A DNA stretch of 64,000 nucleotides, taken from positions 24,385 through 88,384 of the forward strand of contig JBAXRK010000001.1 in NCBI GenBank assembly GCA_037131245.1, given 5' to 3'. Both the position numbers and the translations under genes were made by a program. The notes beneath the pieces are model-generated. The model did not search any database. It had not been told where the DNA came from and saw only the letters and a program-made list of their open reading frames with translations. This DNA is from Candidatus Omnitrophota bacterium. Lineage in GTDB: Bacteria; Omnitrophota; Gorgyraeia; Zapsychrales; Fredricksoniimonadaceae. Each line of letters begins with the position of its first letter. The first letter of the stretch is position 1. Of the stretch, positions 46,701 to 64,000 are shown piece after piece.

Positions 46701-49700
46701 CTCTTCATAAGCGATATTAAACAAAGCGCCAAAGCTGATCGCCTGCGAGAAGAAAATAGCACCGACCCATAAGTAAACCGGCAAACCAGCGAACAGGTTA
46801 TAGCCCAGGATCAGGAAGAAGAAGATGACCCAGCGCAGATAGCGAGCGACAGAAGGCTTCTTGAGATAGAATCCAAAACCGTCGAGCCAGAAATTATCCA
46901 TCTTATGGGCCCACGGCGTCTTCGGTGAGAGGAGCATGGTGAGCGGCATACGGCCAGCCACAGACTCGGTGGAATCGCTCGCCCATTTGTAAGACGATGT
47001 GCGATGATTGAGCTCGGAATAGAACCAGTTCTTCCCGCGCCGATAATAACGCAAGTGCTTTGTGCGGTAACCGAAGAGCGCAAAAGCGACCGTCGTGATC
47101 GAATCTTCGGCAACATAGTCGTCGCCCGCCAGACCTTCCGACCAACGCATAGCCTGGGTGCGGACCATGAACTTACCATAAGCCGTCACGCCGCCGACCT
47201 GATCCTTACCGGTAAGCGCGTGATAGTAGAAGGCATTCTCCCCGATCGGAACGATCTTGCCGACCGAGCTGATATTCGTGGCGATATAATGATCGATGAT
47301 CGGTACGCCGGAACCCAGGCGGGAATCATAATAGAACTCGGAAATGACTTCCGGCGTATACCAGATATCTTCAGTACGGGCATGGTGGTCCGCGTCGACC
47401 AGATCAAGGGTCAGACCATGTGTGAACGGAACGGACACGGTCAGCGAGTTCCACTTCATGGAATGCGGCTGCTCGATCGGATTATTCCGGTTCCAGGTCG
47501 CCGTTGCGCCCTCGACAATGACCGTCTTGAACAGAGGCCTTACCCCATTCATAGCCTTCGAATCATTGGTCGCAGCGATCAACGGCTCCATCTTCCCAGC
47601 CAGACGCAGATGCTCCTGCACCAGATCATCACGATCAATGACGCCTTCCAAATATGCCTGGCGCAATTTCGGCAACAGAACATACAAGTATTCTCTCAAA
47701 CTAGACATGACCATCGGATCCATAGATTCAGGAATGAGCTGTCTAAAGCGTATCAGCTTGCCCTGGTCTTGGCTCAAGCGCTGAGCAATGCGCTGCGTTG
47801 TAGCCTGAACCGTTCTGACTTCCACAGCGAGCTTGGTATATCCTTTTTCTTCATAATTACCGAACGAACCAAAATGTTTCATCATCAGGCGATCCGTACG
47901 CTCTTCCACCGCCAGGCTGATCTGCGCGTCAGTATAATCTGGACGGATCATCCTCATGCGATACTCATAAACCTTTTTAACCTTAAGAGAAGACGCGGCA
48001 TTATTCCAAAGATCGGCCAGGAATGTATTGGCCCATTCGACCAGGAATGTCTGGGTCATATTGCGAATGCCTTCCATGGAATGCTTGGGCTCTCCGGGCA
48101 TACGACGCAATTCTCTTAACTCATGGGCGCTGGCGCGTAAGAAGTATGCCGGCTTCCCGTTAAGCTCACCGATCCTCAGGCCATCCTGACGAACCGCGTC
48201 GATCCTGTCCGAATCCACAGGGATCCAAACACCCTGCTCGAGCGTGCGAACCATGGCCTGCCAATAAGCCCTCTTGTCACGAGCCAACAAGCCAAAACGA
48301 GTCGTCAGCTCCTCGACCATTTTCTTGTCTTCCTCTTTAGTAACAGTCAACTTGTTAAGCTCATCCCAAACGAAAAAGGTATCCTCACCGAAGCCCTGCA
48401 TAGACAAGGCATAAGCCAAAAGATCGCGCTCACGAACCGGGGCCGACGGACGGTCAAAACGGATCTGGTCATTAACAAAATGAATGATACGGTGCCTGCG
48501 CTCTTCTGAGGTGTCGCGGTTATCCGCACGGAACAGATCCATAACATTGCGATACCATGGCTGATCTTCACCCAAAAGGACAGCCAGACGGTTCAGGCGC
48601 TCCTGGTCAAAGGCCGGTGAATTGCGATACTGACGGATGATCGCTTTCCAGGCCAGCGCGTCATTAGGATCGATCAACAGCTGCTTATGATCCGGATTAG
48701 TCAGCTCTTCGATGATCGCAAGCTCAAATTCATTGATCGCTTCCTGGCCCATGGTCAAAGGCTGACGCCCGGCGGCCTTGAAATTATTGGCATACCAGCC
48801 TTCGGCCTGGTTACGGAACAGATGATCGAGAACCGTCGGAAGCTGCTTATAGGTCTTTACATCATAAATGTGCATTTCCCGATAATAGCGACGCGTCACC
48901 AGGCTCTTCACCAGATAACCCATGGAATAGAAGGTCAGGCGCAGAGTCTCAAAGACCACCGCAAATAGCAGGATTTGCAGAACAACCCGCAGAACATTGT
49001 AGACCAGGATGGACGGCCCGACCGGCAGGAACGTATTAAGCGCGACCGCGGAGAGCAGAATGCCCGCCTGAACCATGAGCTGCAGCTTGTGCATTCTGAC
49101 AACGCTCTTAAGCGAAACCTTCTTCTGCGCTTCCGCCGGAACTTTCTCGCCGGCTTCCTTGGCCGCCTTGGCCGCCTGAGCTTTCTCCGCTTTCATCATA
49201 TGACGGCGGACCAAGAGGAAGAACCCTTGAGCGATCAAAAGCGCAAGCGGCACAGCAATAACAAGATACCAGTTAGCCGCCAGGAGGTACGGAATGCCTA
49301 TATAAGAGATCTGTGAGATCGCGTTCCAGAGGATCACCCCACCCAGACCGGCGGACAAAATAATGATCATACTGCTGTGGAAAGCGCGCATCTTGTCGAG
49401 CATATGCTTGGCATAAGGATTGCCTTTGCTCAACCCTAAAATGTCCCAGATCGTCTGACCCTTCATACGAGCGCCGGAGAAAACACTTAAAGTGAAGCGC
49501 CAGAAGCCCATCCAGAATGTCTGATAAGCTTCCAAACGATGCTTGATGCGCGGCAGCCCGGTCAAATGCTCACTTGTCATAATAAAAGTGCGGAACTTCT
49601 CGATGAACTGATGATATTGATCGTTCTGATTGATCGGGAAAGATTGCGGCCCCGTGACCACATCAAAAGAATGCGTCCCATCCATGATGCTCAGAACATA

Positions 49701-52700
49701 TGTCTCAAATTCCTTCCTCAAGGCTTCCAGCTTATCCTTTTTATCCTGGCTCATTTTCCCGTTCTTGGCCAAAAGATCCTGCCCCAGGAGGAAGCGCCAG
49801 GCCTGGTTCTTCTCTTCCCACATGAACGAGAACTTATGCAGTCTCGATGAGCCGAAACGATCTTTAACATTCTCCTGTTCACCGACCTTCCAGGAAGGAG
49901 CACCGGCGCCCATTTCACTGAAACTGATCTTCACGATCAATTGGTACAGCCTCATGAACGCCGACATGAAAGCCTTGCCCTCTGCCTCGTTCTCATACCA
50001 ATGGGAATAACGGGTTTTAACAAGATAGGAATACAGCCACTCGTCCAAACGGCCCTGGCCGTTGATCGCAACGCCTTCCGACGTCAACACCTGACGCAGC
50101 ACATACATTTCAAGAGGAACAATGCGATGACGCGCGCCCTCACCCGGATTGGCTTCCTTCTCAAGGTCATCGTTCGATACAACGTACATACCGGACGGAG
50201 ATTTCTCACGCGGCAGATCCAGCTCTTCAAAATCAGCAGCCAAACGGATGCTCTTAACGATCGTCTCGATCAAACGATGGCGGGTACCGACATTGGCATC
50301 TTTGCTGCCAGCTTCCCCGGCATAAAGGTCATATGACAGGCCGAGCTTCGTAAAAAGCTCCTTGACCTTGCGCTCGATCTCCAACGCGCGCGTCGATGAC
50401 ATCCGGTCATCGCGGGCGATCACAGAACCCCTCACCACCATTGAACGGGCACTTTCCGGATGATCCACCCGGCGCATCATCTCGGCCACGACCCGGCGTT
50501 GAAAACGCGCCGCGGAGATCAACGGACGGACCGTCTCAAGGGAGCGGAGTGCCGCTTCATAATTTCCACGACCGAACGCGTCTATCAACTCGCTAAGCGC
50601 AATAGCCGGACCTTCTTCAGCCGCAACCCTCTCTTTATCCTGACGGAAATACTTGCTGGACGGATCGAAAGAATTATCCCGGATATGAGCCATCCGCTTT
50701 TCGATCCTGCGCCACTCTCTGGCACGGTCACGGGCACTCGGGATCTTGGAAACAACCTTCTCCAGGCGCGGCAGGACAGCATTCCTGAAGATCGTATAGT
50801 TATCAAATCTTCCCAAAGCCTTACGGGCATCAATAATGACATTACTCTGATTCGGTTTCCATCCGGCGCTGATCAAGTCCTGATTATTGTCGGCATTGAC
50901 ATTGACCTTATGGCTCCGACGAATAGCGCGATAACCGGCGGTCAGAAGGCTGTAAATCAAATACATAAGCGGGAACGCAAGGACGGCAGTCGCTATGCCT
51001 TTGGTCCAGCCCCAGACATTGGCCCAGAAATGGCTCTGCTCATAATTCTGGATGGAATCAACCTTGATCTGCGGCACATCCGAAACTTTGATCTGCTTGT
51101 CGAACGCCGAAAGCTTAAGGACATCAGGATCATTCTTACCATTCTTCACTTTCTCAATAACCTTATCCAGCGTCCTCTCGGCGTTGCTCTTCAGGAACGG
51201 AACAAAACGCTGGATCTTGCTGATCGCACCATCACTGGTCATGTCGGAGGCATTCAACTCGGATTCAAATCCGGCCACGCCAAGATCCGTAAAGAAACCG
51301 CTCGCGTTCTTCTTGCTCGCCACCGTCTTGCCATTGGCCTGCAGACGAACCGCGGCCGGCTTCTCACCCAAAGTCCAGGTCTGGCTCTTCGCATCAAACT
51401 TCGGATGAACATACACTTGTGATAAAACATACGCTTTGCCATCAAGGTTAACAGCGTAATTAACCACAACACTGTACAGCCCCTTGGCCTGTCCATTCTC
51501 TATTTCCAGCGAGTAAGCTGACTGCTCCCAATTATCGAAATGCAGCTGAACATTAGCCGGTGTGCTTTGACCACGTCCCTCGAAACCCTTGAAAGCCAAG
51601 CGGCCGCTAGCCAGGTCAAAGCCCTGATAGCGCAAGCCCTGCTCTTTCACGCTCTCGGCTTTATAAACGCTGTGACTGTTTGTCATGATCTCGCGGCCGT
51701 TCAACTGAACAACTTCACCGCTACCAACCGCTTGACCCTTCATTGATTCAAGCGCCATGCGCAACACCGTTTCGTTAACATCAGCCCCGGTCTTGAACGT
51801 GTTCCCATTGAGCTTGAACTCATGACTTTCGAGCGCCAACCTCGAATTGAGCTCATCGCCGTATTTCGAAACCGTCATCCAGCCGGGAACACCCTGTGGC
51901 AGGCCGGTCGAAGGCTTGCTGTCACTAAACTCGTTCATTGTCACAAATTCACGGCCGCGATTATCGAGGATCTGCCGGTCGGCCTGCAGCACATACTTAA
52001 ACGCGATCTCACCCTTAAATTGATTAAGCTGATCACGCAAATGCTCCCAACCGCTCAGCATATCACCGGCGGTAAAACTATGCCCGTCAGCTACGCGAAC
52101 ACGGCTATAGACAATATAACCTTTGCCATCCGGCGCGTTGGTGATCAAGCCGGTATTATCCGAGAAGGAATCAACCTGCTCATTCATACCATGTGTCTGG
52201 GTCTTTAGAGCCTTAAGAGCGATATCAATAGAGCCCTGGCCATTATTAACTAAATCCTCCGTATAGAAGAAATATGTCCGCACGCCGTTCACTTCACGGA
52301 CGCGGTCACGGCCCTGCAGGTCGATCAGCGCGGTATAGGCCACATCATTCGTGGTCCCGGCTTTCAGGTCGATATGATGCTCGATACCGGCATAAGAGAG
52401 CGTGCCGTTGCGGAAAATGCGATTAGCCAGGCTGAGGTCATTGAAGTCCGTGATCTTGTTGCCATTAACATCGAGCAGCCAGCTTTCATCCGTCAGGTAA
52501 TTGCCAACCATCGTCCTGGCCGACGTCGCCACGCCCAGGGCACGGGGAACGCCCACATACTGCTTGGTCGTGATCTCGCCATTCGCGCGGCTCTCGACCA
52601 CATTATTATTCCCGTCCTTGATCTCGGTGTGCTTATCATTGAGCAACAGGCTGGTGACCTCGGACTCAATGCGGGTCAGGTCGCGGCTGGCCTCACCCTG

Positions 52701-55700
52701 AAGGGCGCCGATCACCACATTCGCGATATTCGTATTAACGGTAAACTTGGCGCGCGCCGATGTAACGAACCCATGGAGATCAACTTTAACAACGGACATA
52801 TCAGCATTCGTCCGGGCCGCCTGGATGGACGTCTTGAGGTTCGCGGTCGCCAGCTGGATATCGGCAATATCCGCCACGCCATTGATCGCGTCCAAGATCG
52901 GCTTGCGAATAAAGAACGTGGCCGACTTGGTCTCGCCGATAGAAACCTTCTTGGTCACGTCACTCAACAGGACCGTTTCCACATGCGAAGCAATGATCGG
53001 GCCATAACCGTTATTACCGGAATTCTCTAAACGCCCGCCGGCCACCTTCTGAAGCGTCTGCTCTCCAACATACGGAACAACCACGCGGTGTTCCTTAATG
53101 ACCTGGCCATTAAGCACATTCTGGAAAACGATCGTATATTCAGTGAGCGCGAATTTCTGGCTCTTAAGCTCCGCCGCCGTCTTATGCGCCGCCAGCCACG
53201 CCGCTTCACTCTGAATGACCTGAGTGGCTTTTTCTTTATAGAATTGCAGGTTGGCATCCGGCGTGAACGACTTGGTGGTCTCAACCATGTTGGTCTTATT
53301 AAGGAAGTCGGCTTTCTTAAGATCGACCAGGAACTTCTGGGCGCTCAAGTTCACATCACCGATGATCTGCTGATTGATCGTACTAAACCACGCAATGCCA
53401 TCCGCCTTGGTCGTATCCGTGAAGGACAACCAGCCTTCGGGAGCGCCCGTGGTATCAATAAGCGTGATCTCTTTAATCCCAAGATCGATCAACGCCTTGA
53501 GAACCGCCGGATCCCTCAGTGACGCCTGGCTCACGAACTGCGCTGTGCCATCCGGCCAGATCACCAGGAAATTGCGGTTCACAAAATCTTTCATCGTGAG
53601 CGTCAGCTCCGACGTCATCCCCGGCACCCTGTTTTCCACCGCCTGCGACAGGATACGGAACCGCAGGACGCCCTCGGGCTTGCCAACAACCTGGACCATA
53701 TCGGTCATCCGGTCATGAACCTTCTTGACCAGCTCGCTCTCGCTCTTCATCTCCGCCGCCAACTGCTCGGCCGTCGCTTCGCCCTTCACATAGATCGTGT
53801 ACGTCTCATCAGCCACATTCTCGACTTCCAGCGCGTCAGCCTGATACGCCGCCTGCTGGAGCTTGAGCAGCTTCTTATATTCATTATCACCGGCCAAGCC
53901 CGTCTCATACGTCGCCACAACCTTGCCATTCTCAACCAAGACCATCTGATCAGCCGCGAACGGCTCACCGCCGATCAAGTAACGGCCACTGACGCCATAC
54001 TGAACCGCACCCTTCACATACTGGGCGGCCTTGAATTTCTCAACCTGGGATTTATTGGTCACCGTCACCGTGGGGCCGTCCACGAAATGGATAAAGCCGC
54101 GGTTGATCACACCCGCCAAACGCTCCTGCGCGATCACAGTGTTCGCGTCAATGCTGCGGATATTGTAAGCAAACGACGGATCGAAGATCCCCCAGCCGCT
54201 GCCATCTGTCGGACGGACAACCAGCGTATCCCCGGTGAGCGGCAAGCTGCCCAAACGCTGATGCGCCTGGATATCGGCCTGCTGCGCCGCCGTCAGGTCC
54301 ATGAACCGGGTCGCGCCGGCCGGCAGCACGGAAACCTTCTCAGGCCAGACATTGCCCTGATAAACGATCGCGCCGATATAATTCGTATCGGTCTTATCGA
54401 AGATCGCGCTCCACTCATAGCTCGGATAGAAACGGTTACCCAGCGAACCATTGACCGCGCTGACGATATTCGTATCCACCGGGCGGTTGGAAGACGTATT
54501 GAACGCCGTCGCCTTGTACGTGTCAGCGATCGTCTCTTTCCCGCCGAACATCGCGACGATATCATGCGGCCAGGCCGTGAACTGATCGGCCACCAGGCCA
54601 ACGCCCGTACCCGCCACGCGGCCTATAAAGGAAGGCTTCGGCGTGCGGTAAGCACCGGTAAAATCGTAATGCGGAGCCGTCGCCGGTTGACGCAGGACCA
54701 CGCTGCCATCCGCCAGATGAACCTCTTCCAGGCTGTTCACCTGGGAAGCCTGGGTCTGGAACTCGGTGATCGCTTCGGTGAAATTGTCACGAATAACGCC
54801 CGCGATCTTCTCACCGTTATAAACGCCGCCGATGCGGATCTCTTCATTATGGAGCGCTTTACCAGTGCGCAACCTGACCAGGAGCGGCTTGCTCATATCG
54901 GTATTCAGGCGGCCCGTTTCGTAATCGTACATATCCTGGGTCACGTAAACCGGCGCGCTAAAGACGATATTGTATTTGATCTCATTGTTAGCCGGGTTAC
55001 GCGCCATCACCACCCCGTTCATCCGGGCGGCGTAATAGGTGCCGTTCACGTCAGGCATATAACGGATAACCTGGCCCAGCTTATTGGTCTCAACGCGATA
55101 AGCTACGCTCTTATCCACATGGCTGAACAGGTCGGCCCGCAGGATATTGGTATTCGTTTCAATATCATTGGCATATTCAAAATCCTGGTGAACGGTGCTG
55201 ATCTGGATCGCATGGCCACGGGGCTGCCAAGTGAACTGATTACGGCCATCGCCAACCGCCCTCAGGAAAGGCAGGCCGAGATAATGATGCGGCATGCCCA
55301 AAATAGCGCGGCCATTATCGTAATAGGAAACCGAGAACAGCGTTTCAACCTGCGGCTCATCATCATAAGCGGTGAACGATGTGCGGGTGGTCCAGTTGAT
55401 CGGCCCGATGGTCTTGATCACGCGCATCAGCAAGGACGGCTCGGAGTACCAATCAGCATCCTGGCCCTTATTGTCGTAGCTGATCACGGTGTCGTAGATC
55501 TGGAAAGACAGGTCAAGCCAATTCGCGCTGGCCAGGGCGATGTCGGAAGCGCTCATCCCGTCCATGTTGATCAGGCTAACCGTCTGCTGGCCCCATTTAT
55601 AGTAGGTGCCGCCCGGCAGGTTAGCGTTAAAGAAGAAGGCGCCCTTACCGGAAACGTCCTTGCCCACCAGGTCGCCGTACATGCTGAAACTGGCCGCCGC

Positions 55701-58700
55701 GTTATACTGATAGCGCGAGCTGTGACGGAGCTTGTTGCGGTCATTCCCCAGATTCCTGATGTACTGCGCATCCTGATCGCGGGTGAACGTCTTCGCGCCA
55801 GCTTCCAGCAGAGCCTTGGCTTTCTCGGCCGCAACCAGAGCCGCGCGCGTTTCGTTATAAGTCGTAATGTTATTGGTGAGGGTCGCGGCTTCATCAAGCT
55901 TATCGGTGATCTGGCCAGCCACCGCGCTCAACCGGCTGCTTACAACCTCAAGCGGCGTTTTGCCGGTTACCAGGTCCGGATCGGTCACTTCAAGCAAAGC
56001 CTGAACCAGCGTGCGCCAACCGCGCTTGGGATCCATCTGGGTAAAGTTCACGGTCACGTTGCGCTTGGAGTTATCCCCAAAGCCCAGGCGCTTCATGTTG
56101 AACTCGGCCCCGCGCTCATTGTTATTGAAAGCCGCTTCATCGGTCACCGACTTCGGATCGAAAATGAACACCACCTTACCGGCTTTGACCTGTTTAAGGA
56201 TCGAAGTGCTTTCGGCACCAGAGAGGCCCTGCGGCATCCCGTACTCCTTGCCAGCATGGTTAATGGTGACGATCTCATTATCGATCGGGGAGATGAAGAT
56301 ATAAGCCGGGGTACCCTTCACGGCTACAGCCTTGACCAGGGGAACATTAACATTGAACGACCCCTGAACCTGGCTATAACTCTGTGAAGGCTTACCGAAC
56401 GAGCTGCTGTCTTCGGCACGGGATGTCGTCCCCTGGAAGACAGCGGTGAACAAAAGGACGGCCAGGGCGAGGCTAAATATGTGCCTCAAGGGGGTAAAGT
56501 TACCCCGGCCAGTGACTTTGACGGAGAACCCATCAAAAGTCTGGGTGACGAACCCTAAATTTTTGCGGATCTGTTTTACTGTATCAGATATACGGGATGA
56601 GAGCTGCGCAAGGGCCGCGGACACACCTTCGGCCGGGGTTTTCCCTTCCTTGCGGACAGAGAATCCTACCGGTTCCTTGCTTGCGCCCTGATCGGGCTGG
56701 GCAGTTCTGGGAGATCTATATACTGGGCCCTGACCGACACTTTCCACACCCTTCACACCCGGCATTCTCAAGGCGGTTCCGGCCCCGTTCTCTTTACCGG
56801 CACCGACACGTTCCACACCCTGGGCATTGCCTAATCCGCGTAGAGCCTTGATCCCGTTCTTGATACCGGTGATCACACTCTTCACGAACCTGGTGTTACT
56901 TCCCACACGCTGCGCGTGGGTGGTGCCATCAGTCAGACTACGGGCACCCTTGTTTCCATCTTCATTCGACTTACCGATCGCGTTACCGTTACCGGCAGTC
57001 GGGCCTTCTTCATCAGCGGCAGACACACGACCCGATTCCGTACTAGCCACACCACGGGCGGCACGTCCCCTGTCAGAGCGGGCGTTCATGATCTCCAGAC
57101 GGATCCTGGTATACAACCCAAGAGCGATCCTGGTGACCTCTCTCCACACCTTCTCCACCGCGGGCGCACTCACTAAACCCTTGACAGAACCGGTGTACAG
57201 AGCCTTCATCACATGAGCCATCTTCTGGCTCAAAGAGCGAGTACTACTACCTTCATCGACAGTAACCGCGAACAGATCCTCGCGGGCATTCGTGTTCGAC
57301 CTACCATTGTCCCTGGCGTGATTGCGAGCAGTTGAACGGCCAGCCTGGACATTAGCCCGTTCATTGCTTTCCCTGTTATTACCAGCAACCTTGACCTGCG
57401 CTTTAGCGCCATTTACTGCCCTACGTACTGCATTCACTACGATCCTACGTGCTACATTAACAGTATTCGCTACATTTGCTTCTGTGCTACCAGTCCGTCC
57501 TACTTTACCTTCAGCGCCGATACCGGACAAACCTAGCGGTCGGGCGCCGATCTTCTCGACGACAACGAGTTTCTTTACCGCGGCAACGAGCCTGCCGATG
57601 GCCACAAACACTACATTCACTACATTAACAGTAACAATACTATCTCTCTTACCCTCCACGACCGCTCCGACTCTGAGAGAGAGTCTGCGGCCTGTGATAC
57701 GACCCGAGTCGCCGAATACCGATTTAAGCCATTTCCAGAAACTCAATATTTGGGCCGCAATCAGCTTGCGGTTCTTGATGCCAATATAGAGAATAGCTCC
57801 AAAGGCAAGTAAAGCGCCAACAGGCGTAGTTCCGCCAGCGCCAGCACCGGTCGCAGCCGAGGCCGTACCGGACGTTCCAAAGGTAAAGAGCAGGGTCATC
57901 AGGCCCATACCGCCAGCCATCGGCATCGCTCCGCCAGGCAGGTTAGGCATTGAAGGCACCTGGGGCATCGTAGGCACGGTCGGCAAATTCGGCACAACCG
58001 GCATAGTCGGCATAACCGGGCCTGTCGGACCATTCACCGGGCCCGTAGGACCGATAGGACCAGGCGGCAGGCCATTGCCCGGAATAGTATTAGACGAAGT
58101 CGTTGGCAGGGCCGTGGTATTGATCGGATCCTGCTTGGGTTCCTGTTTCGGAGCCTTGGAAGCGACCACATTACCAAGATTGACCACTAAGGTATTGCCA
58201 GGGATAGCCGGTTCAGGCTGATCAAAGGTTGTGGCCTCGGATTCAGGCGCGTTAGCCAAAGCGCCAGCCAAAGCGACCATAGCCACGGTCTTCTTGGCCT
58301 TAGGCATAGCCCAACCAAAGAATTTACGGAAAACCCCTGGCTTAGTGGTCTTAAGCGAAGCCGGGGCCTGAACAACTGGCGCAGGCGGCGTTTGAATTTT
58401 TGAAGCAAAACCATCAAACTTGGCCACGACCAGCGGCGCATTCTGCTCATTGAACTTGCGGATCTCTGGCATGCCGGTAAAACGACTTGCCAGCTTAAGG
58501 GCTCCGGCAGCCTGCTGACGCCTGCCTTCCCGCACAGATCCATCCTTGTTAAAGGAAAGAAGTTTGCGTATTTCTCTGTCGCCTGGTCTCAATTCGTAAG
58601 TGTCCGTATCATGGCTATCGGCAAACATCATCAACCGGGCCGCGAGCGCGACCAATTCATCCCTGGTCATCGTGCGCTGAGGCACGCCGGAAACAGTAAA

Positions 58701-61700
58701 TTCAGGCGCCGCAAAGGAATACACGCCTTGAGGATCCTTTGTCAAGGGCATCCCAAACGCTATACTGGCATTTCCCTCTTCACCCAAAGCTCCGGCAACA
58801 AGAATGGCTTTATTCCCATTCCCGTCAAAACGGACATTTCTCTGGCCTCGATAATCATCGGCATAAATAAAGCGGACACGATCGGTATTATTACCCTGCA
58901 AGACCACCGTGGTCAGGCCGATGGGCGAATCGACGCCCTCGATGATCTGATCGCCTTTTTCGATCCCCAGGGAAGAATTGAAATCCGCGGACAAAGTCGT
59001 AGTCGTTCTCATGCCATCCGCCGCGACCTTCACTTCTGTCACAGTCTGCACAGGAACATCGGCAATAACAACATTTTCGGCATCCATCACGGCAGTACCA
59101 TTACCCGTAGACTCCAGAGGCACGACCGTGGCTTTACGGCCCTTCTGATCCCTAACCACGCCAGTCAAGGTCCGAGTGCCATCCTGAGCAACCGTTGAGA
59201 TCACTTGTGTCTTGCGGTCAAACTCCTGGCCCGGCTTCAAGGTGAGCTTGCCCTGCGTGATCTGGACGTCACGATCCTCGGCACCCGTATTACGCGCCAC
59301 ATAAGCCGTCATGACCTCCGGTTTACGCGTATCGGCAATACGGGAAGGAATGATCTTGCCCACAAGGCTTGTCAGCATGATCCCCAGGGCGAACTTCTGG
59401 TCGCCCGCGTTGATCTTGCCCTTCAGATCCGTAATGCTTCCAGTCAGGCTGTCCGCTGTGAGCTCTTCGCGGGACTTGTCCACATGGGTACCCAGCGCCG
59501 TCTTCAATTCTTCACTGATAGCGCCACCTTTAGCGATATCCAGGCTCATCAGCATCAAAGCGCTCAAGCTTTCCTGATTGACTTTCATCAGCCACTCAGC
59601 GCCACCGATGGTATGATCCATCAGGACCTGATCGTTCACGTCATAGCGGCCATTACGCATCAAGCCATAAACTTTATCCAGGACAACCTTATCCTGACCG
59701 GCCGCGGTCTCCCTTTGCTTATTAAGGAATGCCGTGATCCGCATGTTATGGAGCGTGGTCACGATAAAGTGGCGGATCGCGAAGGACTGCTGGAGCGCCT
59801 GCATATACTCGGTGGTCAGCCTAAGGTCCCCAACATCATAGGTAAACACATTCTGATTCCGGGCCCAGGCCGCGGTACGAGCTTCGAGCTCCTTGGCAAA
59901 AGTAGCCAGGCCGACATCGCCCTTAGCATTGGCCAGCACCGTCTTAATATCTGACTGGACTTCTTTCAAATTGGCGAAAATGCCATCCATGACCTCTTCA
60001 TTGAACAGGACATACTTCTTACCCTCAACATCCTGGTCACGGTTATTGCGGTTGACGGCATGAGTCAGGTTAGCCGTGGTCCAATGCTCGGCATCGGCCA
60101 CGATAACGTCCAAATTACCCTTAAAGCTATGCTGTTTAGCCATGATCGGGAGCGCGACCGTAATGCCAGGGATTTCCTGGCCGGCATAGGTACCCGTCTT
60201 TTCAATAGCCTGACGGATCTGGTCTTCATTCGCATTACCATCGATCGCCAAAGCGCCAAACTGCTCCTGGATCTCTTTTAACAGGGCAATATCGGAGACA
60301 AGCACCAATGTCCCGCGGCCTTTAGCTTTGGCTTCGGCCACCAGGGCGGCAATACGCTGCTTTAAGGCCACACGATCGCTAACACGGCCGGTAGTCACAT
60401 GATCTTTATGGGTCTCAGGTAAAGCCGCCTGTTTCCAGACATTGCTCTCATCTTTTTCATCACCGGCAATGGTGGTACCGGTCTTGGCCTGGATCAGGGC
60501 ATCAGTGCCCATCCGTGTGGCGGTAAGACCAACCACCAGGCCACCCTTGGTGTCAAAGATCTCTTCGATCGGGTTCTCGGCCACGGTCTTGTCGCTGAAA
60601 GCAATGGCGTCAACATCGATCTTGTCTTCTTCTTTAGCCGTTTCATTATAGATCTCGGCCTTGGCCAGCTTGTCGATGAACTCGCCGATCATCTTGTCGT
60701 GCACCCGGCCCATGCGGTCCACATGAACGAACTGGTTGCGCTTGCCTTTGCCATCACCACTATCAACCTTGGCCAGCGCCAAACGGGTACCTTCCTTCTC
60801 AAAGAGAGACCGGATCACACCACTAAGAATATCCGCTTGCTGGCCTTTATAATCCTGGCGCAGAGCATCGGACACCAGCAGGTCGGTATGGCCGGCCTGG
60901 GTGGTATTCAAGGCTTTATTAAAGTAGATCGCTTTAACACCGTTTTCATTAGCAAGCTTGAACTCCTCAAGCGAAGCGATAACCTTGATCTCTTGAGTGC
61001 TCATTTTAGCGCGAACATCCTTCAGGATCGACCGGATGGACGCCATCAGCTTCTGCGTATTGGCATCTTTAACCCCGGTCTTACCCTGGGTGGAAATATA
61101 CGTCTTCTCCATTGTTACCAGATCGTCCACTTCGTCCGCCACGATGTGCAGGTTCTGCTTCATCTGATCCAAAGCCAGGCGTACATCCGCAACGGCCGCC
61201 TGGATCGGCTGGCTGTCATGGGACACGGAATCAGCACTGAAATAAACCGGCATGAACCCGCGTTGATCGATGGAGAAAAGCTTGAGTTTCTTCTGATCCC
61301 TGAGGTCCGCGGCGATCACTTTCAACTGAGCGAGCGTGTCAGCTTCGATCTGACGGCTTGCGGGCGTTCCAGTGGGCGTCTTGGCCTGTTTCTCGCGTAG
61401 ATCAGAATATGTCTTGTAAAGGCCGTCCATGGCGGATAAGGCAAAGCCTTTTTCAGCAAGCAGCTTCTGGATGACCGGGGTTAAATAATCGGTACCGCCA
61501 GCCAGTAACTTCTGATAGTCAGACTCATCACGGACCAGGAAGTTGGTTTGCAGGCCTTTTTCCATGAAAAGGATCGTAGCGGCAATACCCACCAGCGTTT
61601 TACCTTTGGCGTTCTCGGCAATAGCGGTCTTTCCCTGAACCAGGCTAAGCGTCATTTTCTTCTGCTCATCTACCCTGGCATCCAACGGCCGGCCGACTTC

Positions 61701-64000
61701 CCTGCCGATCTGTTTGATCCGGTCAAAAAGGGCGTTAACTTCCTGCTCCGTAACCTGCGCGCCATCCGCCTTCTGCGCGGCATTCATCGCCAAAGCGGGA
61801 GTACGGCCGGACATCTCGTTAAGCAGACGGGTCGGATAATCAATAATATTCCTGATGATCTGCATGGGCGTGGGAATAGCCCCGGAAGGAACATTGGACG
61901 GCAGCGGCGCATTGTTCTGCTGAACGGCCCACTCAGGCACGCCCTGTTTCTTGAACGTTTGAGCGCTGACCTCGGGCATGGACTCTTCGGTAGCCCCGGT
62001 ATCTTCAAAGAAATGCTTGCCATCGTACTTGGCAGGAGCGGGAGCCGCCGTAACCTCGGCAACCGGCTGGGCCACCTGATCGGCCGCTGTTTCAACCGTG
62101 GCCGGAGCTTCATCCATAGCCTTGACCGTGGCGGCAAGTTCGGCCTGGGCCGCCAACACGGTGCGCGGCTGGACACCGTTCTCGATGGCCTCGATCTTGG
62201 AGTTATACAAGTTATAAGCGTTCTGGAACTGGGTCCGGGTGATCTTGCCGGCCGCGAAACGCTGGGCCACGCGCTTGATCTTACCCTTATAAGCGATGAC
62301 CTCGATCTCTTCAGGCGTCTTCTCGATACCAGCCGCCTTGAGGATGTCGTTGCAGTAGATGATCCCTTTAACCATCGCGAAGCTGTACTGCGGCGCCCAA
62401 GCGGCGAGCCAGGTAGCGAACTTGGCTTCGATGGCGACCGCGGCCTGCTCATTGCCCTGCTGGCGGAGCGTCGCGGCCTTGCGGTTGACCGAGAGGGACA
62501 TCTTGTAGACCGTGTTGAAAACTTCGCTCTTCGCGGCAGCGCGGGCGTCAATGATGAACGGCTTGAAGGCGCCCTTACCGCTGAGGAGGCCGTCTTTCTG
62601 GGCCGTCTCAAGCGCTTTGGCGTAAGCGGCATCGCCAATAATACCCTTGATGATCGTCTGCGCGATAATGCCCATGTTCGCGGCCGCGGCCACGATAGAG
62701 GCCATCTCGTTCACCGTGAACTCACCAGCTAAGAACTTATCGGCCAGCACCTTGGCGGCGGCGGCGACTTCACCGGAAAGCTCAGCCTTCGGGGCTTTGT
62801 ACGCGATCACGCCCACGAACGCGGCCAGGAAGCCGGCCTGGTTCTCGATCTTCATGCGGCCCATCAAAGCCTTGATACGCTTGGCCTGGTCAACATTCTT
62901 GTCGGTGGTGACGCCCAGCGCGCCGTTCCAGTAAGCCTGCCAGATATCGCCCGGCTTCCAATAATCTTCGGAAGCCTTCATGGCGTTATTAGCGGCACCG
63001 GTGGAAGAAACTTTGAAGCAGGAACCGAGGTGGTTGGTGGCGTCGTTGGTACCGATCTGGCCAGCCACTTTCTCAATGATCGACAGATACGGCAGGACGT
63101 TCCCGACATTTTCAGGATCAAGATCCCCGGAGGACGCCATCCGGTCATAAGAATTCAGCGCAAGCTCCAGCCGGCCATGATCAAATCTGGCAAAATCGGC
63201 CATATCTTCAAAAACCTTCCGGGCCGTTTTACGATCAATGCCACTGGCTTCCAGGCGCTTCATGATCTTAAGGTTCTCGAGGACGAGGTCGGACACATTG
63301 AAACTAAGCGTCGGGACGACCGCATTGGTCAACGGCTTGGGCATGATGGTGGGCGTCAGGCCATTGTAAACTTTCTGACGATCCAGCATGTTGGTGGTGT
63401 TCCACGCGCCATTCGCGTCAACCGTGACCGGAACAATAACGGGTTTTACCTCACGGGCCAAACCAGAAACAAGGGCCGGCGCGATGATCGTGTGCTTCCT
63501 GAAATTAAAGAAAGACTTCCCGAAGAAGATCTGATTCGGGTCAAAATACTGCCAGGTCTTCCCGTTAATAACGCGGAAGAACCCGAAATGAGACACGGTC
63601 TTGCTCTTTTCAACATCGACATTCAGATTCTCATTGGCATTACCCGAAAGGCCAGCAACGCCAATAACCTGCTTTGCCGTGACCGGAGTGCCGACATCAG
63701 GCAAGCCTTTCTCGTCCAAATGGCTATAGTAGGAATAATAGGGCTCCGTGCCGTTATTGTGCTCAACAATAACCACCCAGCCGTATTGATCCACAAAACC
63801 CACAAAAGCAACCTTACCCGCGGCAACCGACTTAACATCGGAACCAATATCGACGATCACATCATTGCCTAAATGCGGACGTTTTTTACCAGCATTGCCG
63901 CGCAAGGACTGGCCGAAACTGTTAAACCCGACCGCCGCTTTGGCCGAAGAAGCCACGGGCCACTGCAGATCGGCCGTCATCATTGAAGGCCGCGATCCCT
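1..64000 (-). CDS. Interior fragment of a single giant ORF (21,332 complete codons in the window, both termini outside it) encoding a multi-pass membrane, multi-enzyme megaprotein
   Basis: Hand translation of the minus frame (codon top coordinate = 2 mod 3) is open from 63998 to 3. Codon-by-codon spot checks found no stop at 30000-30059 (PQYHDMLNWGAIVIPYKDAS), 45003-45059 (GKAMASRLSAGDWTRILQQ), 41943-42119 and 42240-42299 (the AT-richest stretch). No track ORF lies in this frame. More than 15 independent enzyme signatures share it. Confidence 0.93.
3870..4175 (-). other. Domain: PEP-utilising enzyme mobile (swivel phosphohistidine) domain
   Basis: SGAVTGPLQIIRDGEGYAQVRQGVVLVVHSTTNRWNDALTRAGGVITDAGDMNCHTAIASREPWLNIPSLVGV (compare G.a.G.v......G.ILV...T.P.w......a.GivT..GG.tSHAAIvARElGiPaVvG). 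The candidate catalytic His is in NCH (about 4003-4011). No PEP-binding TIM barrel follows. Confidence 0.72.
4270..5280 (-). other. Domain: PEP/pyruvate-utilising enzyme ATP-grasp (PPDK_N / PEP synthase N-terminal)-like
   Basis: VKVAGGKGKNMGVLHSM; LRVPETLILSAKAFE; VAVRSSATFEDGEKFSCAGQALSVLHV; VWASFFDPSFVLYRLRNG; MAVVLQAMVGDAAAAGVVCSMD; VDVEFVLEKNTGCLWIVQARPLT. These are collinear with the GGKgaNL / VP.gf / VAVRSSA..ED..SFAGQ / ASl...RA..YR / MAV.VQ.MV / W..Q.RP. signatures. Confidence 0.75.
5400..6550 (-). other. Domain: radical SAM enzyme 2 (CX3CX2C) with a Cys-rich C-terminus; paralog of module 1
   Basis: MEIEFHPSLACSLRCQYCPN (about 6483-6513); WAIVSGGLEPTE. C-terminal cysteines: PGCNGPRCWAS..GLPCIY..SLCANHSCQG. 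The N-terminal leader (ATLGLQLDGLVRFYGLIRHSQYLQSAF) parallels module 1 (EQLGLSRVELESIYRYMQANPLIQDAL). Confidence 0.8.
7000..8090 (-). other. Domain: radical SAM enzyme 1 (CX3CX2C) with a Cys-rich, SPASM/twitch-like C-terminus
   Basis: VEVEFHPALWCNLDCEYCYS (Cys codons about 8022-8056); KRVFISGGKEPLAS (GGEP-type SAM motif). C-terminal cysteines: RCWRDEY..GIACCY..RMCGQ..AKCGACMLF. Confidence 0.8.
8910..9890 (-). other. Domain: glycosyltransferase family 9 (heptosyltransferase)-like GT-B
   Basis: VRHILIVKKNGTATRMGVNMYFGMFAHLKTMFPQAQIRVFS (N-terminal pattern ILvi....iGD......l..Lk..fP.a.I). KPVIYFDPHCGSRKGAKNWSQQDSIKFMALL (K.Wp pattern). MSLGSHIALLSAVDMGVVFDTGTAHLLSGLGKQAVVVF (compare sL.el.all..a.l.i..DSGpmHlAaAlG.P.v.lF). 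Confidence 0.6.
11090..11625 (-). other. Domain: HIT-superfamily (GalT / Ap4A-phosphorylase-like) nucleotide transferase or hydrolase
   Basis: RKCPFCVKNYG (CPFC, about 11603-11615); FFEHNMFIVAKEH; histidine triad GRYAKHQHIHVYNV (HxHxHxx, about 11333-11360). Confidence 0.55.
11865..12430 (-). other. Domain: 2H phosphoesterase (LigT / cyclic phosphodiesterase)-like
   Basis: Two H-x-(T/S)-x motifs are spaced about 90 aa apart: GEILHTTFFLPF (about 12275-12297) and KASMLHISLARVT (about 12003-12027). Confidence 0.55.
12540..13215 (-). other. Domain: phosphodiester glycosidase (NAGPA/DUF2233)-like, divergent
   Basis: AIFAINGHQGNYWEGHTMLIRNGQLL (INGGFF..G..I.dG pattern); VAGVVLVRNG; RAGISIVGKDAQGRVVFMTLKRSGADDKAGEAMVKDVAAIAVERGLTEAVLLGASADAQ (R.AIG.d..G.l.l..vDGR..S.G.tl.elA.....G...AlnLDGGGS pattern, partly degenerate). 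Confidence 0.4.
13780..14310 (-). other. Possible (beta/alpha) barrel-like phosphate-binding module (ThiE/NanE-like?); weak call
   Basis: The beta-alpha pattern alternates: GASFVIIVDF / ALVMIAEIDTAAQ / GVDGVVLKHWG / LVIIPAGGIF..LAMPE. The ..PAGGI.. loop near the C-terminus is typical of ribulose-phosphate-binding barrels. Confidence 0.3.
14480..14760 (-). repeat. Paralogous module, copy B (LAPPAVT..IRFASIH)
   Basis: RLPRALAPPAVTFRPAGMADLEVSSFGVPVFAQETVKEMIGIALRSGRLVVQAVRANGSSILIDPANITIRFASIHF. Confidence 0.8.
14930..16830 (-). repeat. Array of six 94-aa (282-nt) in-frame helical repeats
   Basis: The plus-strand landmark gcctgca(a/g)cca recurs at 15079, 15361, 15643, 15925, 16207 and 16489 (period exactly 282). 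The unit is RE.ARVQVALAANDAAK..IK.A.GRQLRAG..AE.H.WLQAMSDVNENNDEK.AVA.YE.VAKAN.DAAKV.ADKGAKDAIAVIVAD.VKVN.. Its W..A..DVN(E/G)(N/G) core relates it to the VNGG repeats at 43850-44830. Confidence 0.9.
15432..16586. repeat. Exact tandem duplication: 564-bp unit (two 282-bp sub-repeats) at 100% identity over about 2.05 copies
   Basis: Base-by-base comparison shows 15432-16022 is identical to 15996-16586 (offset 564 nt, 188 codons). Identity breaks at 15431 (c) versus 15995 (t), and at 16023 (a) versus 16587 (c). Confidence 0.9.
17075..18615 (-). other. TM clusters (about 8 helices) after GT-like copy 2
   Basis: LGLSHFFLRKLPGLVASILFIALMVF..LPLAPIMVAFGYLFMHAITIPAV; LAAPLLPLILYFIPMEPIILLAAGFYIIQVVSWIAGPAV; VAKLILTLTAVVALWFYPVVSVLLAASAVVFVAG; FKIALVVGLGAFLVTYALTVSAFILGLSGMAMTVFKIINLVWLVPVALWSV. 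Confidence 0.65.
18700..19480 (-). other. Domain: glycan-synthase-like GT-A core (FKS/GT48-like), copy 2, probably degenerate
   Basis: ADKFIFNVIPAG..LVKLYADLGVPNIRLLDP (compare Fks1 RKFKFLVSMQ..LLRAYPDLQIAYLDE). MMIGARHMIAQD (compare VGAREYIFSEN). GRGGVGPLCRAAEDSVMGEGILAEGGEIRYSSFVEM (compare [38 protein letters not shown]). The DxD position reads DPS. All comparisons are from memory. Confidence 0.4.
20500..21115 (-). other. TM cluster (about 6 helices)
   Basis: VWVGSFLTWMAMFWSLPKLLVMLGATGSVSIGLIAIPVLFMAILISALFASSGFYL; LVIAAAAFVFGVGMALLFGASFHLHGVVVLIFASMFVAAL; VFWTSIALGLTVIAVTMVSGGFASIATGVWITGAVFASPWIV. Confidence 0.65.
22985..23052 (-). other. Predicted TM helix closing region II
   Basis: VIEITVIGTIALTLLGFLGFINPKRW. 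Confidence 0.65.
24950..25510 (-). repeat. Paralogous module, copy B (WFST-QQIIG module)
   Basis: IVLLGAEGKANSWLSILPSTRTNGVAWFSTIDQQIIGNTNISAQKYLVDL..YTITFSNIFSGATVKESRVILPFIGE..NGFGPLVPTHVTTT. Plus-strand 25381-25435 is about three-quarters identical to 53341-53395. Confidence 0.8.
27430..28320 (-). other. Long alpha-helical / coiled-coil stretch inside region II
   Basis: ALEAYLKQVLQLGRQAHEDSLLSQEAELRTKIY..LEYAQANLEQLNARLALAQ..IEALRRLEEGPGALADLQQQINDLQREVHAKKRALYDQAAEIRQAGEALEQ. Confidence 0.55.
30990..31075 (-). other. Signal-anchor-like TM opening super-module B
   Basis: KKSNRARGLLAAILFVWLAVAPMAVAAPVAAVSS. Confidence 0.6.
31338..31500 (-). other. TM cluster (about 2-3 helices)
   Basis: RVGVIFLKWVAIIWTSFRFFFGLWTPSILFAHLAVILGLWGMKYVISCLISPLW. 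Confidence 0.65.
31850..32660 (-). other. Domain: sugar-phosphate nucleotidyltransferase (NTP_transferase)-like, divergent
   Basis: IGVFLDIKEGRVNRFIEKPRDEK (F.EKP motif, 32034-32060) and QYRINAGVMVSRGS (the INAG(I/V)Y-type motif, 31932-31952). The N-terminal GxGxR loop is not evident. A Cys cluster follows: CASCGVSVDPAQCLSDHAINLC. Confidence 0.4.
32800..33850 (-). other. Scattered TM helices (about 5)
   Basis: NTLLLFVTGFFATLLGIYFFSFF (33780-33850); WVLRPLAAIGTFVFGMQW; VQTVLVMPLLAQIVMMYYSMFFGS; ISLFSQIGALFYYWYSGVTRMGVLALC. Confidence 0.55.
34200..37150 (-). repeat. HEAT/ARM-like alpha-helical repeat array
   Basis: D..VR-type helical hairpin starts recur: DRDVRYMAVRAAQAHP, DPDVRAMAQAWI, DAQVRDAAAQFG, NGQVRTAAAMMLSKI, DVDSRVAAMMQLAQS, DPMARGALAYALGGVRDRGAISLLSDLM, EEHFVRVMAVAAAG. 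Confidence 0.5.
38118..38400 (-). other. Pro/Ala/Thr-rich linker followed by a TM helix
   Basis: KPAKAPAPDTTPVAPPAPPTAPATKPVTKTESAKTTPPPAAEAPKA, then GLRFVGLAVVMALMMAAFWWHQV (38118-38185). Confidence 0.6.
38440..38840 (-). other. Minimal zincin-like motif region, HExxH copy 2
   Basis: NTLVLYVNPALTAKANGQYQYPVDLAKVIFGKHEIEHLRDP. The HEIEH codons lie at 38558-38544. The context is the same as copy 1 (L.(I/L)Y.NP..L, then HExxH). Confidence 0.35.
38930..39350 (-). repeat. Ala/Glu/Lys/Gln coiled coil with an internal 291-nt duplication
   Basis: AAAEHERQAVENAQLKQKLEDD (plus-strand anchor cttctgctttaat at 39267) and TAAEHERLAVENAQLKQKLSNV (anchor at 38976). The offset of 291 nt equals 97 codons. 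Confidence 0.75.
40870..41500 (-). other. Domain: Pol-beta superfamily nucleotidyltransferase head (tRNA CCA-adding / poly(A) polymerase family-like)
   Basis: DRIIIIGGSVRDVFYGRQVNDLDISVLV fits the GGxVRDxxxGxxxxDxDI signature (41392-41445). Downstream, IVQSDTILRLLRHKHQFGLSI fits the ..DPLR.LRa.RF...f.I helix. Confidence 0.72.
41790..42000 (-). other. Minimal zincin-like motif region, HExxH copy 1
   Basis: GKLWAIYFNPEMLRAPPNVQRIVMAHEFDHVLGYNEEQ. The HEFDH codons lie at 41852-41838. Confidence 0.35.
42650..42730 (-). other. Predicted TM helix (inside the AT-rich island)
   Basis: LSYIAAYVVLILVAWPILVRLGRFINAFW. Confidence 0.6.
43060..43340 (-). repeat. Paralogous module, copy A (LAPPAVT..IRFASIH)
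   Basis: RLPQVLAPPAVTRNADGSVDLDLSSYSVPEPLQQAFKDVLLAALRSGQMVVQYALTDGRIVSALPADINIRFASIHL. Copy B lies at 14480-14760 (offset 28,584 nt at the IRFASIH anchor). Confidence 0.8.
43850..44830 (-). repeat. Four helical repeats carrying a VNGG motif
   Basis: RMKWTAGVRQALVAVNGGDLKKAQEKL (about 44690-44720); RMNWTTGLRQALVDVNGGDLKKAQKKL (about 44485-44520); LVAYRQAMMDVNGGKMPKD (about 44131-44160); RMDWNQGLRRALVDVNGGNAKKAQEQL (about 43885-43920). Spacing is irregular (about 204, 355 and 240 nt). Confidence 0.8.
46362..46845 (-). other. TM cluster (about 5 helices)
   Basis: YLRWVIFFFLILGYNLFAGLPVYLWVGAIFFSQAISFGALFNIAY; VRFYWFFVNWIWTY; AFWTFLLAAFMGFAPELIALWFLPVMSFVAGWAGMYIL. Confidence 0.65.
46900..47720 (-). 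other. Domain: processive glycan-synthase-like GT-A core (GT2 / FKS-type GT48-like), copy 1
   Basis: LTLDLVDADHHA (DxD-like). GKFMVRTQAMRWSEGLAGDDYVAEDSITTVAFALFGYRTKHLRYYRRGKNW resembles my memory of fungal Fks1 (..[30 protein letters not shown]..). SSYKWASDS is a degenerate QxxRW position. Upstream, SEERRHRIIHFVNDQ (about 48470-48510) resembles Fks1 EAERRISFFAQSL. TM clusters flank both sides. Confidence 0.45.
48910..49520 (-). other. TM cluster (about 5-6 helices)
   Basis: FWMGFWRFTLSVFSGA; MIIILSAGLGGVILWNAISQISYIGIPYLLAANWYLVIAVPLALLIAQGFFLLV; LMVQAGILLSAVALNTFLPVGPSILVYNVLRVVLQILLFAVVFETLRLTFYSMGYLV. Confidence 0.65.
50930..51010 (-). other. Predicted TM helix closing region I
   Basis: HFWANVWGWTKGIATAVLAFPLMYLIYSLLTAGYRAIRR. 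Confidence 0.65.
51010..56427 (-). other. Large non-membrane region I (about 1,800 aa; Gly/Asn/Thr/Val/Tyr-rich, probably beta-rich and extracytoplasmic); function unknown
   Basis: It has no hydrophobic helices and lies between two TM anchors (56427-56492 and 50930-51010). Composition and short alternating motifs suggest a beta-rich fold. No catalytic signature was recognised by eye. Confidence 0.4.
52850..53470 (-). repeat. Paralogous module, copy A (WFST-QQIIG module)
   Basis: ITLIDTTGAPEGWLSFTDTTKADGIAWFSTINQQIIGDVNLSAQKFLVDL..YTIVFQNVLNGQVIKEHRVVVPYVGE..NGYGPIIASHVETV. It matches copy B at 24950-25510 at nucleotide offsets 27,960 and 27,891. Confidence 0.8.
56427..56492 (-). other. Signal-anchor-like TM opening super-module A
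   Basis: LRHIFSLALAVLLFTAVFQGTTSRAEDSSS. Confidence 0.6.
56500..57770 (-). other. Basic, Arg/Asn/Val/Gly-rich low-complexity (probably disordered) linker
   Basis: Example: TVNVVNVVFVAIGRLVAAVKK..ANVANTVNVARRIVVNAVRRAVNGAKAQVKVAGNNRESNERANVQAGRSTARNHARDNGRSNTNARED.. and GVERVGAGKENG..GVKGVESVGQG. No enzyme motif was recognised. Confidence 0.5.
57775..57915 (-). other. Predicted TM helices (about 2)
   Basis: GGMGLMTLLFTFGTSGTASAATGAGAGGTTPVGALLAFGAILYIGIKNRK. Confidence 0.6.
57930..58080 (-). repeat. Pro-rich low-complexity tract (about 12-nt periodicity)
   Basis: GNGLPPGPIGPTGPVNGPTGPVMPTMPVVPNLPTVPTMPQVPSMPNLPGG. The plus strand shows reiterated ggcat/ggcac-containing 12-mers. Confidence 0.8.
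58246..58296 (-). other. Internal signal-peptide-like / TM segment
   Basis: FFGWAMPKAKKTVAMVALAGALANAPESE: a basic n-region, a hydrophobic core, then an A-x-A-like motif. It is in frame and has no upstream stop. Confidence 0.5.
59990..61700 (-). other. Domain: divergent SecA DEAD-like (SF2) ATPase motor
   Basis: LVQGKTAIAENAKGKTLVGIAATILFMEKGLQTNFLVRDESDYQKL (compare SecA L..GKIAEMKTGEGKTLVA..VVTVNDYLAKRD). LHIVADEVDDLVTMEKTYISTQG (compare [22 protein letters not shown]). GLTATRMGTD (compare MTGTA). ITVALPIMAKQHSFKG..VIVADAEHWTTANLTHAVNRNNRDQD (compare [36 protein letters not shown]; the arginine-rich motif is degenerate). Confidence 0.7.
63520..63905 (-). other. Domain: peptidase M23 (LytM/lysostaphin-type peptidoglycan endopeptidase)-like
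   Basis: RPHLGNDVIVDIGSDVKSVAAGKVAFVGFVDQYGWVVIVEHNNG..YYSHLDEKG..VTAKQVIGVAGLSGNA..VSHFGFFRV. This matches the HxGxD, G.V.A...G.V, gyG..V.I.H, Y.HL and G..G.tG pattern. The terminal HxH is altered (SHFGFF instead of PHLHFE). Confidence 0.72.

Follow-up and report, generated by a model that had tools for sequence, protein, structure and literature searches.

What does a peptidoglycan endopeptidase fold do at one end of a reading frame that runs through 64 kb of DNA without a stop, and can it still cut? The question is raised by positions 24,385 to 88,384 (forward strand) of contig JBAXRK010000001.1 from a Candidatus Omnitrophota bacterium (assembly GCA_037131245.1), a stretch of 64,000 nucleotides referred to below as the window. 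An earlier note, made from the letters alone, had described an M23 (LytM-type) domain with an altered HxH zinc motif at 63520-63905. We found that the domain is real and that its HxH motif is incomplete. The reading that we favor, with moderate confidence, is a catalytically degenerate LytM (M23-fold) domain that would act as a binder or regulator rather than as a hydrolase.

The window holds part of a single giant gene, whose length exceeds 21,000 codons. The minus-strand frame that starts at window position 63998 contains 0 stops in 21,332 codons, fills the whole 64 kb and is open at both ends; the "megaprotein" of the earlier note is thus a single open reading frame (ORF) of at least 21,332 codons, well above the >10,000 amino acids (aa) in one ORF that mark the giant proteins of Omnitrophota. 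Along this frame the GC content at codon positions 1, 2 and 3 is 0.59, 0.40 and 0.63, a pattern typical for coding DNA. All strings quoted in the earlier note were found, on the minus strand. Residues are numbered from the first codon in the window, residue i occupying positions 63998-3(i-1) down to 63996-3(i-1), so that 63520-63905 corresponds to residues 32-160. The features on which the argument turns are the following.

3..63998, minus strand: giant-gene fragment, a stop-free frame of 21,332 codons (0 stops) with coding-type GC that holds all Pfam hits
63519..63980, minus strand: M23/LytM-like domain, residues 7-160, delimited by the hidden Markov model (HMM) of its relatives, Pfam PF01551, AlphaFold and Foldseek
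63978..63983, minus strand: ATG ATG (M6, M7), where the giant gene may start or a domain/fusion boundary may lie; Met1 of the relatives falls on M7, and only 17 nt of the window lie upstream
63861..63875, minus strand: HLGND, residues 42-46, the HxxxD motif with zinc ligands 1 and 2 (H42, D46), intact
63717..63728, minus strand: YSHL, residues 91-94, with the catalytic histidine H93, intact
63615..63629, minus strand: NLNVD, residues 124-128, which most probably corresponds to HLHFE (register A) according to MAFFT, hmmalign, Pfam and AlphaFold
63594-63641, minus strand: NANENLNVDVEKSKTV, residues 120-135, quoted by the earlier note as an insertion
63576..63614, minus strand: VEKSKTVSHFGFF, residues 129-141, holding H137; the HxH strand is either followed by this segment as an insertion or, in register B, formed by it
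63576-63593, minus strand: SHFGFF, residues 136-141, which the earlier note equated with PHLHFE
63537..63542, minus strand: D153-P154, the conserved C-terminal "DP" of M23

The M23 fold is assigned at a level far above chance. The Pfam profile Peptidase_M23 (PF01551), whose gathering score is 28.7 bits, matches residues 41-131 (window 63606-63878) with 48.1 bits (E 1.4e-12) when the query is 5000 aa long and with 55.2 bits (E 8e-15) when it is 200 aa; the profile alignment suggested as a check in the earlier note bears out its domain call. A phmmer search of PDB sequences returned 29 M23/LytM chains at E<=1, the best being the LytM domain of EnvC (8c0j_B, E 5e-8). AlphaFold, given an alignment of 99 sequences, produced a model with a mean predicted local distance difference test score (pLDDT) of 72.6 and a core, roughly residues 50-120, above 90; from the single sequence alone the pLDDT was 30. 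Submitted to Foldseek, the model matched M23/LytM structures with probability 1.0 and gave 60 PDB matches at E<=0.001, headed by the LytM domains of DipM and EnvC and followed by ShyA, Csd2, lysostaphin and others; the top 50 listed were almost all M23/LytM. Its TM-score against the EnvC LytM domain was 0.75 (target-normalised).

Relatives of the fold are plentiful, and none of those examined is specific to this domain. When 1.84 billion cluster representatives were scanned in full with HMMER, 3519 M23 proteins were returned at E<=0.001; no specific relative was present among the matches examined, most of those listed being 26-48% identical over the matched stretch, and a word-indexed search of 5.8 billion proteins with the domain returned no match. 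With the best representatives as seeds, a profile search collected 1813 proteins, the top ones mostly stand-alone and 150-180 aa long. The 98 closest relatives, at 24-33% identity, are leaderless and consist of an M23 domain standing alone, about 160 aa in length; all of them keep HxH, within the signature GNAxGMxxxDQHLHFExRT. One candidate, P0011, with seven matched stretches on residues 151-197, proved to be a Big_2-like repeat protein and was dropped as a compositional match.

These relatives also indicate where the domain begins. The HMM of the 98 proteins places its first position on M7 and scores 80 bits over residues 7-123, and Met1 of at least 90% of the 98 stand-alone relatives aligns to M7. 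Their consensus N-terminus, MESKIAWPL…, is without a signal peptide. The M23 domain may therefore lie at or near the N-terminus of the giant protein, possibly as its first module.

Some members of the subfamily appear to be prophage lysis or tail-associated enzymes, as the setting of P0172 suggests: this leaderless M23 protein of 162 aa (Silvimonas soli CP106736.1, locus L001, 8001-8489) is encoded directly after a lambda-like prophage tail module. That upstream module comprises Phage_tail_L, NlpC/P60-JAB and a GpJ-type tip; Com/MethyltransfD12 and HicAB genes lie downstream. Another relative, P0164, has no phage context. The best PHROG match of the Omnitrophota domain is an endolysin family, and a tblastn search against phages gave no match. 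In view of its relatives and of the PHROG match, the domain seems to have been copied from an M23 gene of the leaderless endolysin type, its probable origin.

The active-site residues were tallied column by column in an alignment of the domain with the 98 closest relatives. As the earlier note had reported, the HxGxD motif and Y.HL are well kept: H42 and D46 occur in 98 of 98 relatives, Y91 in 97 and H93 in 98. The domain further retains G44, L94, G116, G119, N120, A121 and P154, and these positions, like the preceding four, vary little or not at all among the relatives (P154 is present in 88 of the 98 and invariant in alignment A1). The replacements lie elsewhere. In the MAFFT alignment with the 98 relatives, histidine is replaced by N124 and again by N126, phenylalanine by V127, glutamate by D128 and arginine by E130, at columns where both histidines and the glutamate are conserved in 98 of 98 relatives, the phenylalanine in 90 and the arginine in 96. 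Judged from these columns, the damage appears to be limited to the HxH strand, with HxxxD and the YxHL histidine intact. Among the relatives the loss is unique to this domain, none of the 98 closest sharing the degenerate state.

That HxH is altered does not depend on how the strand is aligned. Beyond residue 95 the sequence has just two histidines, H137 and H169, which rules out an H-x-H pair and leaves the motif incomplete in any register; within the C-terminal part of the domain itself the only histidine is H137 (63588-63590). Of the motifs that characterize an active M23 endopeptidase, HxxxD and the YxHL histidine are thus present and HxH is missing. The M23 catalytic site is defined by HXXXD plus HXH, and LytM structures substituted there contain no Zn (PMC8416486).

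Where the strand lies is a harder problem. Three registers were compared: in register A, N124-L-N126-V-D128 takes the place of HLHFE and an insertion of about 12-13 residues follows; in register B, H137-F-G139 is the HxH equivalent; and in register C it is V135-S-H137. Only register C would complete the zinc triad. MAFFT picked register A in three different alignments, hmmalign to a general M23 HMM of 60 sequences did so with a posterior of 0.8-0.9, the majority of the phmmer pairwise alignments agreed, and the Pfam match continues ungapped in register A to residue 131, position 89 of 96 of the profile. In the AlphaFold model, residues 124-130 form a strand in a block with a pLDDT of 86, whereas residues 138-151 fall below 50. 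The model is not independent evidence on the register, because its input alignment was already in register A. For the M23 fold itself, modeling, which the earlier note had also proposed, gives support.

The preference of the profile tools proved to be due in part to gap costs. When the presumed insertion was excised according to each register and the remainder rescored with the general M23 HMM, the result was 116.3 bits for register A, 116.6 for register B and 114.0 for register C, compared with 109.5 bits for a truncation at residue 123; without gap costs, A and B tie. The subfamily HMM did not align beyond residue 123, and its score stayed at 79-80 bits when either candidate strand was masked or deleted. 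Restoring N124H/N126H added 6 bits on the subfamily HMM and lengthened the alignment. The codons of N124 and N126 are both AAT, one base from CAT, and NLNVDV exactly mirrors the polar/hydrophobic alternation of HLHFEV; we infer from both that register A is favored. On balance, register A is the probable one, register B comes well behind it, and register C ranks only slightly below B. The earlier equation of SHFGFF with PHLHFE, preceded by an insertion, could thus not be established. The register of this strand cannot be read by eye, and the choice made by profile tools should be treated with caution where gap costs drive it. A local tandem duplication of the strand was considered and rejected, as NLNVDVEKSKTVS and HFGFFRVINGKTW have no protein or codon similarity.

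We propose the following account of the domain. Its ancestor would have been a leaderless stand-alone M23 peptidoglycan endopeptidase. The β-sheet core and the substrate groove are retained, as are two of the three zinc ligands (H42, D46) and, with H93, one catalytic histidine, while the HxH strand has decayed, most probably to N124-L-N126, beside an insertion of 12-13 residues. Lacking the third ligand, the domain would most likely be without a catalytic zinc. The groove could then serve as a binding module, either for a peptidoglycan stem peptide or for the helix of a partner protein, as in EnvC with AmiA/AmiB. The degenerate LytM-type domain suggested by the earlier note is consistent with this account as far as the incomplete HxH and the nearest structures (EnvC and DipM) are concerned, but the NLNVD register would remove both histidines and not one. 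The roles that were offered for it, as an amidase activator, a binding module or a site with a shifted ligand, all seem reasonable by analogy, and the proposed tie of the megaprotein to murein would rest on this single M23 domain.

Several observations weigh against a degenerate binder or regulator. The domain has kept three of five active-site residues, whereas EnvC has kept fewer, so that some residual or altered activity may persist. Within a loop that is poorly modeled, 11 residues beyond N126, H137 might be a replacement ligand. As noted above, registers A and B tie on the general HMM and AlphaFold inherits the MAFFT register. Pfam found no amidase, LysM or coiled-coil partner domain in the 21,332-aa frame. 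The searches returned no relative of this particular domain that could show whether the degenerate state is conserved. Finally, if translation starts at M6/M7, the protein would lack a signal peptide and the domain would remain in the cytoplasm, remote from murein; with such a leaderless start, the giant protein would need an export route of its own to reach the cell wall.

Of the competing explanations, the one that stays closest to a degenerate domain is that the register of the earlier note is right, H137-F-G139 being the HxH equivalent after a 12-residue insertion. The catalytic histidine would then be kept and the zinc-ligand histidine changed to glycine, leaving no zinc triad and the same functional consequence. 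We regard this as possible although unlikely. Removal of residues 125-136 gives the 116.6 bits quoted above, against 116.3 for register A; HFGFFRVINGK then falls gapless on HLHFEVRKNGK, and it takes only one insertion, placed in a loop that varies among family members. This register would, however, place R142 at a core-facing position and F141 at that of the conserved glutamate, judging from the strand pattern, and Pfam, MAFFT, hmmalign and AlphaFold choose NLNVD, even if gap costs and alignment bias favor that choice. A lower likelihood attaches to an active metallo-endopeptidase with a rebuilt site, in which H137 would be the third zinc ligand (with VSH, residues 135-137, as the strand, or through a loop folding over the groove) and H93 catalytic, and murein would be cut either in remodeling the cell's own envelope or against prey. 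H42, D46 and H93 are indeed intact, long loops before HxH are common in the family (spacings of 10-14 in 19 motif matches among 150 representatives), and the excised register-C sequence scores only 2-3 bits below A and B. The phmmer alignment to P0024 (…PPHLHFGIY) sets S-H137-F-G-F-F on L-H-F-G-I-Y, but it is the only one of 16 long pairwise alignments in this register. Moreover, the first HxH histidine would still be absent (V135), the model has a pLDDT of <50 at residues 138-151, and the presence of both histidines in 98 of 98 relatives suggests that both are needed.

We place slightly below this the explanation that the domain is a decaying relic, an endolysin-like gene captured by fusion to the 5' end of the giant gene and now drifting without a specific role. 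In register A, the five lost near-invariant residues all lie in the catalytic strand, no relative has the degenerate state, and neither a homologue nor a PDB relative was detectable for the next 1,850 aa. In contrast, the near-invariant core residues examined outside the strand are kept (the glycines, Y91, L94 and P154), the frame is intact, family HMM scores still reach 80-114 bits and the model core exceeds a pLDDT of 90, all of which argues for a maintained fold. The most far-reaching idea, to which we give very little credence, is that the leaderless endolysin-type M23 was domesticated and serves the giant protein as a functional tool on the cell wall, its site being non-canonical: either a rebuilt zinc center (H42/D46/H137) that still cuts murein or a degenerate LytM (dLytM) "key" that docks into peptidoglycan amidases and switches them on, conceivably those of prey, delivered in both cases by the secretion route of the giant protein and not through a signal peptide.

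Comparison with known systems is compatible with the preferred reading of a degenerate LytM domain that binds or regulates. An M23 fold with at least one active-site residue lost, as found here, is one mark of the dLytM class; others are a coiled coil with FtsX binding or a LysM domain, and a cognate auto-inhibited Amidase_3 enzyme that is activated. The dLytM activators EnvC, NlpD, ActS and DipM likewise combine an M23 fold with an incomplete HXXXD/HXH site, and by analogy a groove-binding role is likely. In EnvC, the groove of the LytM domain binds the interaction helix of AmiA/AmiB, displacing the helix by which the amidase inhibits itself (PMC10268282). We take the analogy to EnvC as functional only. 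EnvC lacks HxxxD and the equivalent of H93, both of which are intact here, and none of the NCBIfam equivalogs for EnvC, NlpD, ActS or DipM was matched (36.1 bits against a cutoff of 270 for EnvC, 20.1 against 740 for DipM and 19.6 against 375 for ActS). Unlike the activators, the domain sits in an ORF of >21,000 aa, carries 12-13 inserted residues at the HxH strand and is accompanied by no coiled-coil or LysM domain found in the window.

The LytM domains of SpoIIQ (B. subtilis), Csd2 and PrgK offer a second parallel, as interaction modules with a partly lost zinc site in envelope-spanning assemblies, although the ligands that they have lost differ from those lost here. The structures 3uz0_B, 5j1k and 8s0u were among the Foldseek matches of the model, but no sequence-specific relationship with SpoIIQ or other scaffold LytM domains was detectable. 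SpoIIQ is discussed in PMC4982068.

The leaderless M23 peptidases of about 160 aa share with the domain the N-terminal boundary (Met1 on M7) and the FG…RPH.G.D and SGNA motifs. They differ in being single-domain proteins that keep HxH, the glutamate and the arginine and are presumably active, whereas GMxxxDQHLHFExRT is absent here.

The host protein resembles the giant proteins described from Omnitrophota ("Archaeovorin" type) in its ORF of >21 kAA, its many transmembrane-like segments and its largely orphan N-terminal region. Its other recognizable domains are listed below, all from Pfam.

35154-35348, minus strand: HEAT_2 (about aa 9551-9615)
7047-8054, minus strand: Radical_SAM plus SPASM (aa 18649-18984)
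4266-5243, minus strand: PPDK_N (aa 19586-19911; E 9e-51)
from 4112, minus strand: PEP-utilizers, following PPDK_N
1143-1640, minus strand: Glyco_transf_5 (PF08323), the catalytic domain of starch synthase (aa 20787-20952)

The enzyme domains are clustered towards the distal end of the frame (aa 18649-20952; window 1143-8054, minus strand). The top 20 domains of Omnitrophota giant proteins include HEAT_2, Radical_SAM and PPDK_N (West-Roberts et al. 2023, bioRxiv 10.1101/2023.11.21.568195), and a 2026 preprint (10.64898/2026.06.07.730766) describes Radical_SAM and Glyco_transf_5 (PF08323) in a sugar-metabolism module, together with many transmembrane helices. HEAT_2, Radical_SAM/SPASM, PPDK_N/PEP-utilizers and Glyco_transf_5 in the window match the domain lists of both preprints; for the transmembrane helices, the correspondence is by hydropathy only, at least 21 strongly hydrophobic 19-mers being present in the giant frame by such a scan, none of them before about residue 1900. 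The preprints differ from our case in reporting C39 and S8 peptidases near the N-termini, and M23 is mentioned neither in the main text nor in the supplements of either. A further mark of Omnitrophota giant genes is a flanking T2SS/T4P-like locus with pilZ genes; the flanks of the present gene lie beyond the window.

The result is an ordinary kind of feature, a dLytM domain, in an unusual host protein. As such the domain is unsurprising, since M23 sites in partial decay are frequent and have been studied well. Giant bacterial proteins, which reach tens of thousands of residues, are however almost uncharacterised, and very few of their segments can be assigned to a fold. The value of the domain is that of an annotation anchor, one of few recognizable modules in a giant orphan protein; being a LytM module of about 160 aa, it also offers a small expressible handle on the murein contact, zinc binding and hydrolase recruitment of that protein.

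How isolated this end of the protein is can be judged from further searches. Residues 1-1200 had no homologue in the word-indexed search of 5.8 billion proteins, and residues 151-2000 had no relative among PDB sequences. By these comparisons, the approximately 1,000 residues that follow the M23 domain (aa 151-1200, window 60399-63548, minus strand) are fully orphan. No locus related to residues 1-700 was found in metagenomes and none related to the PPDK region in GTDB genomes; an exact 70-mer of window 63451-63520 was absent from the genome and metagenome contig collections.

Two stretches of the frame stand out by composition. In window 56500-58600 (minus strand, about aa 1800-2500), the GC content at second codon positions is 0.51-0.53, compared with a mean of 0.40. 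A Pro/Thr/Gly-rich linker is followed there by transmembrane-like segments (about aa 1902-1918 and 2040-2072) and an Arg/Asn/Val/Gly-rich run (aa 2100-2480), and the signal-peptide-like segment IFSLALAVLLFTAVFQGTTSRA (about aa 2505-2527) closes the stretch. An alternative frame for residues 2100-2500 was sought and rejected, there being no convincing ORF and no better frame. The second stretch, window 41799-42998 (minus strand, aa 7001-7400), falls to a third-position GC content of 0.36-0.38 (z about -3.5; the window averages 0.63) and includes a strong hydrophobic segment at aa 7091-7109; the lowest overall GC content of the window, 0.48, lies within 42001-44000. The low third-position GC of aa 7001-7400 may indicate a segment of different origin.

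Long ORFs are also present antisense to the giant frame, on the plus strand, at 53715-56387 (890 aa), 61548-62732 (394 aa) and 63030-63872 (280 aa), the last of which is antisense to the M23 domain. The ORFs at 63030-63872 and 61548-62732 were rejected as genes, since they have no Pfam match and their promoter and terminator signals do not rise above those of shuffled controls. The translation of the 890-aa ORF is rich in Arg, Leu and Ile and does not look protein-like. These antisense ORFs are most likely by-products of the codon bias of the giant frame.

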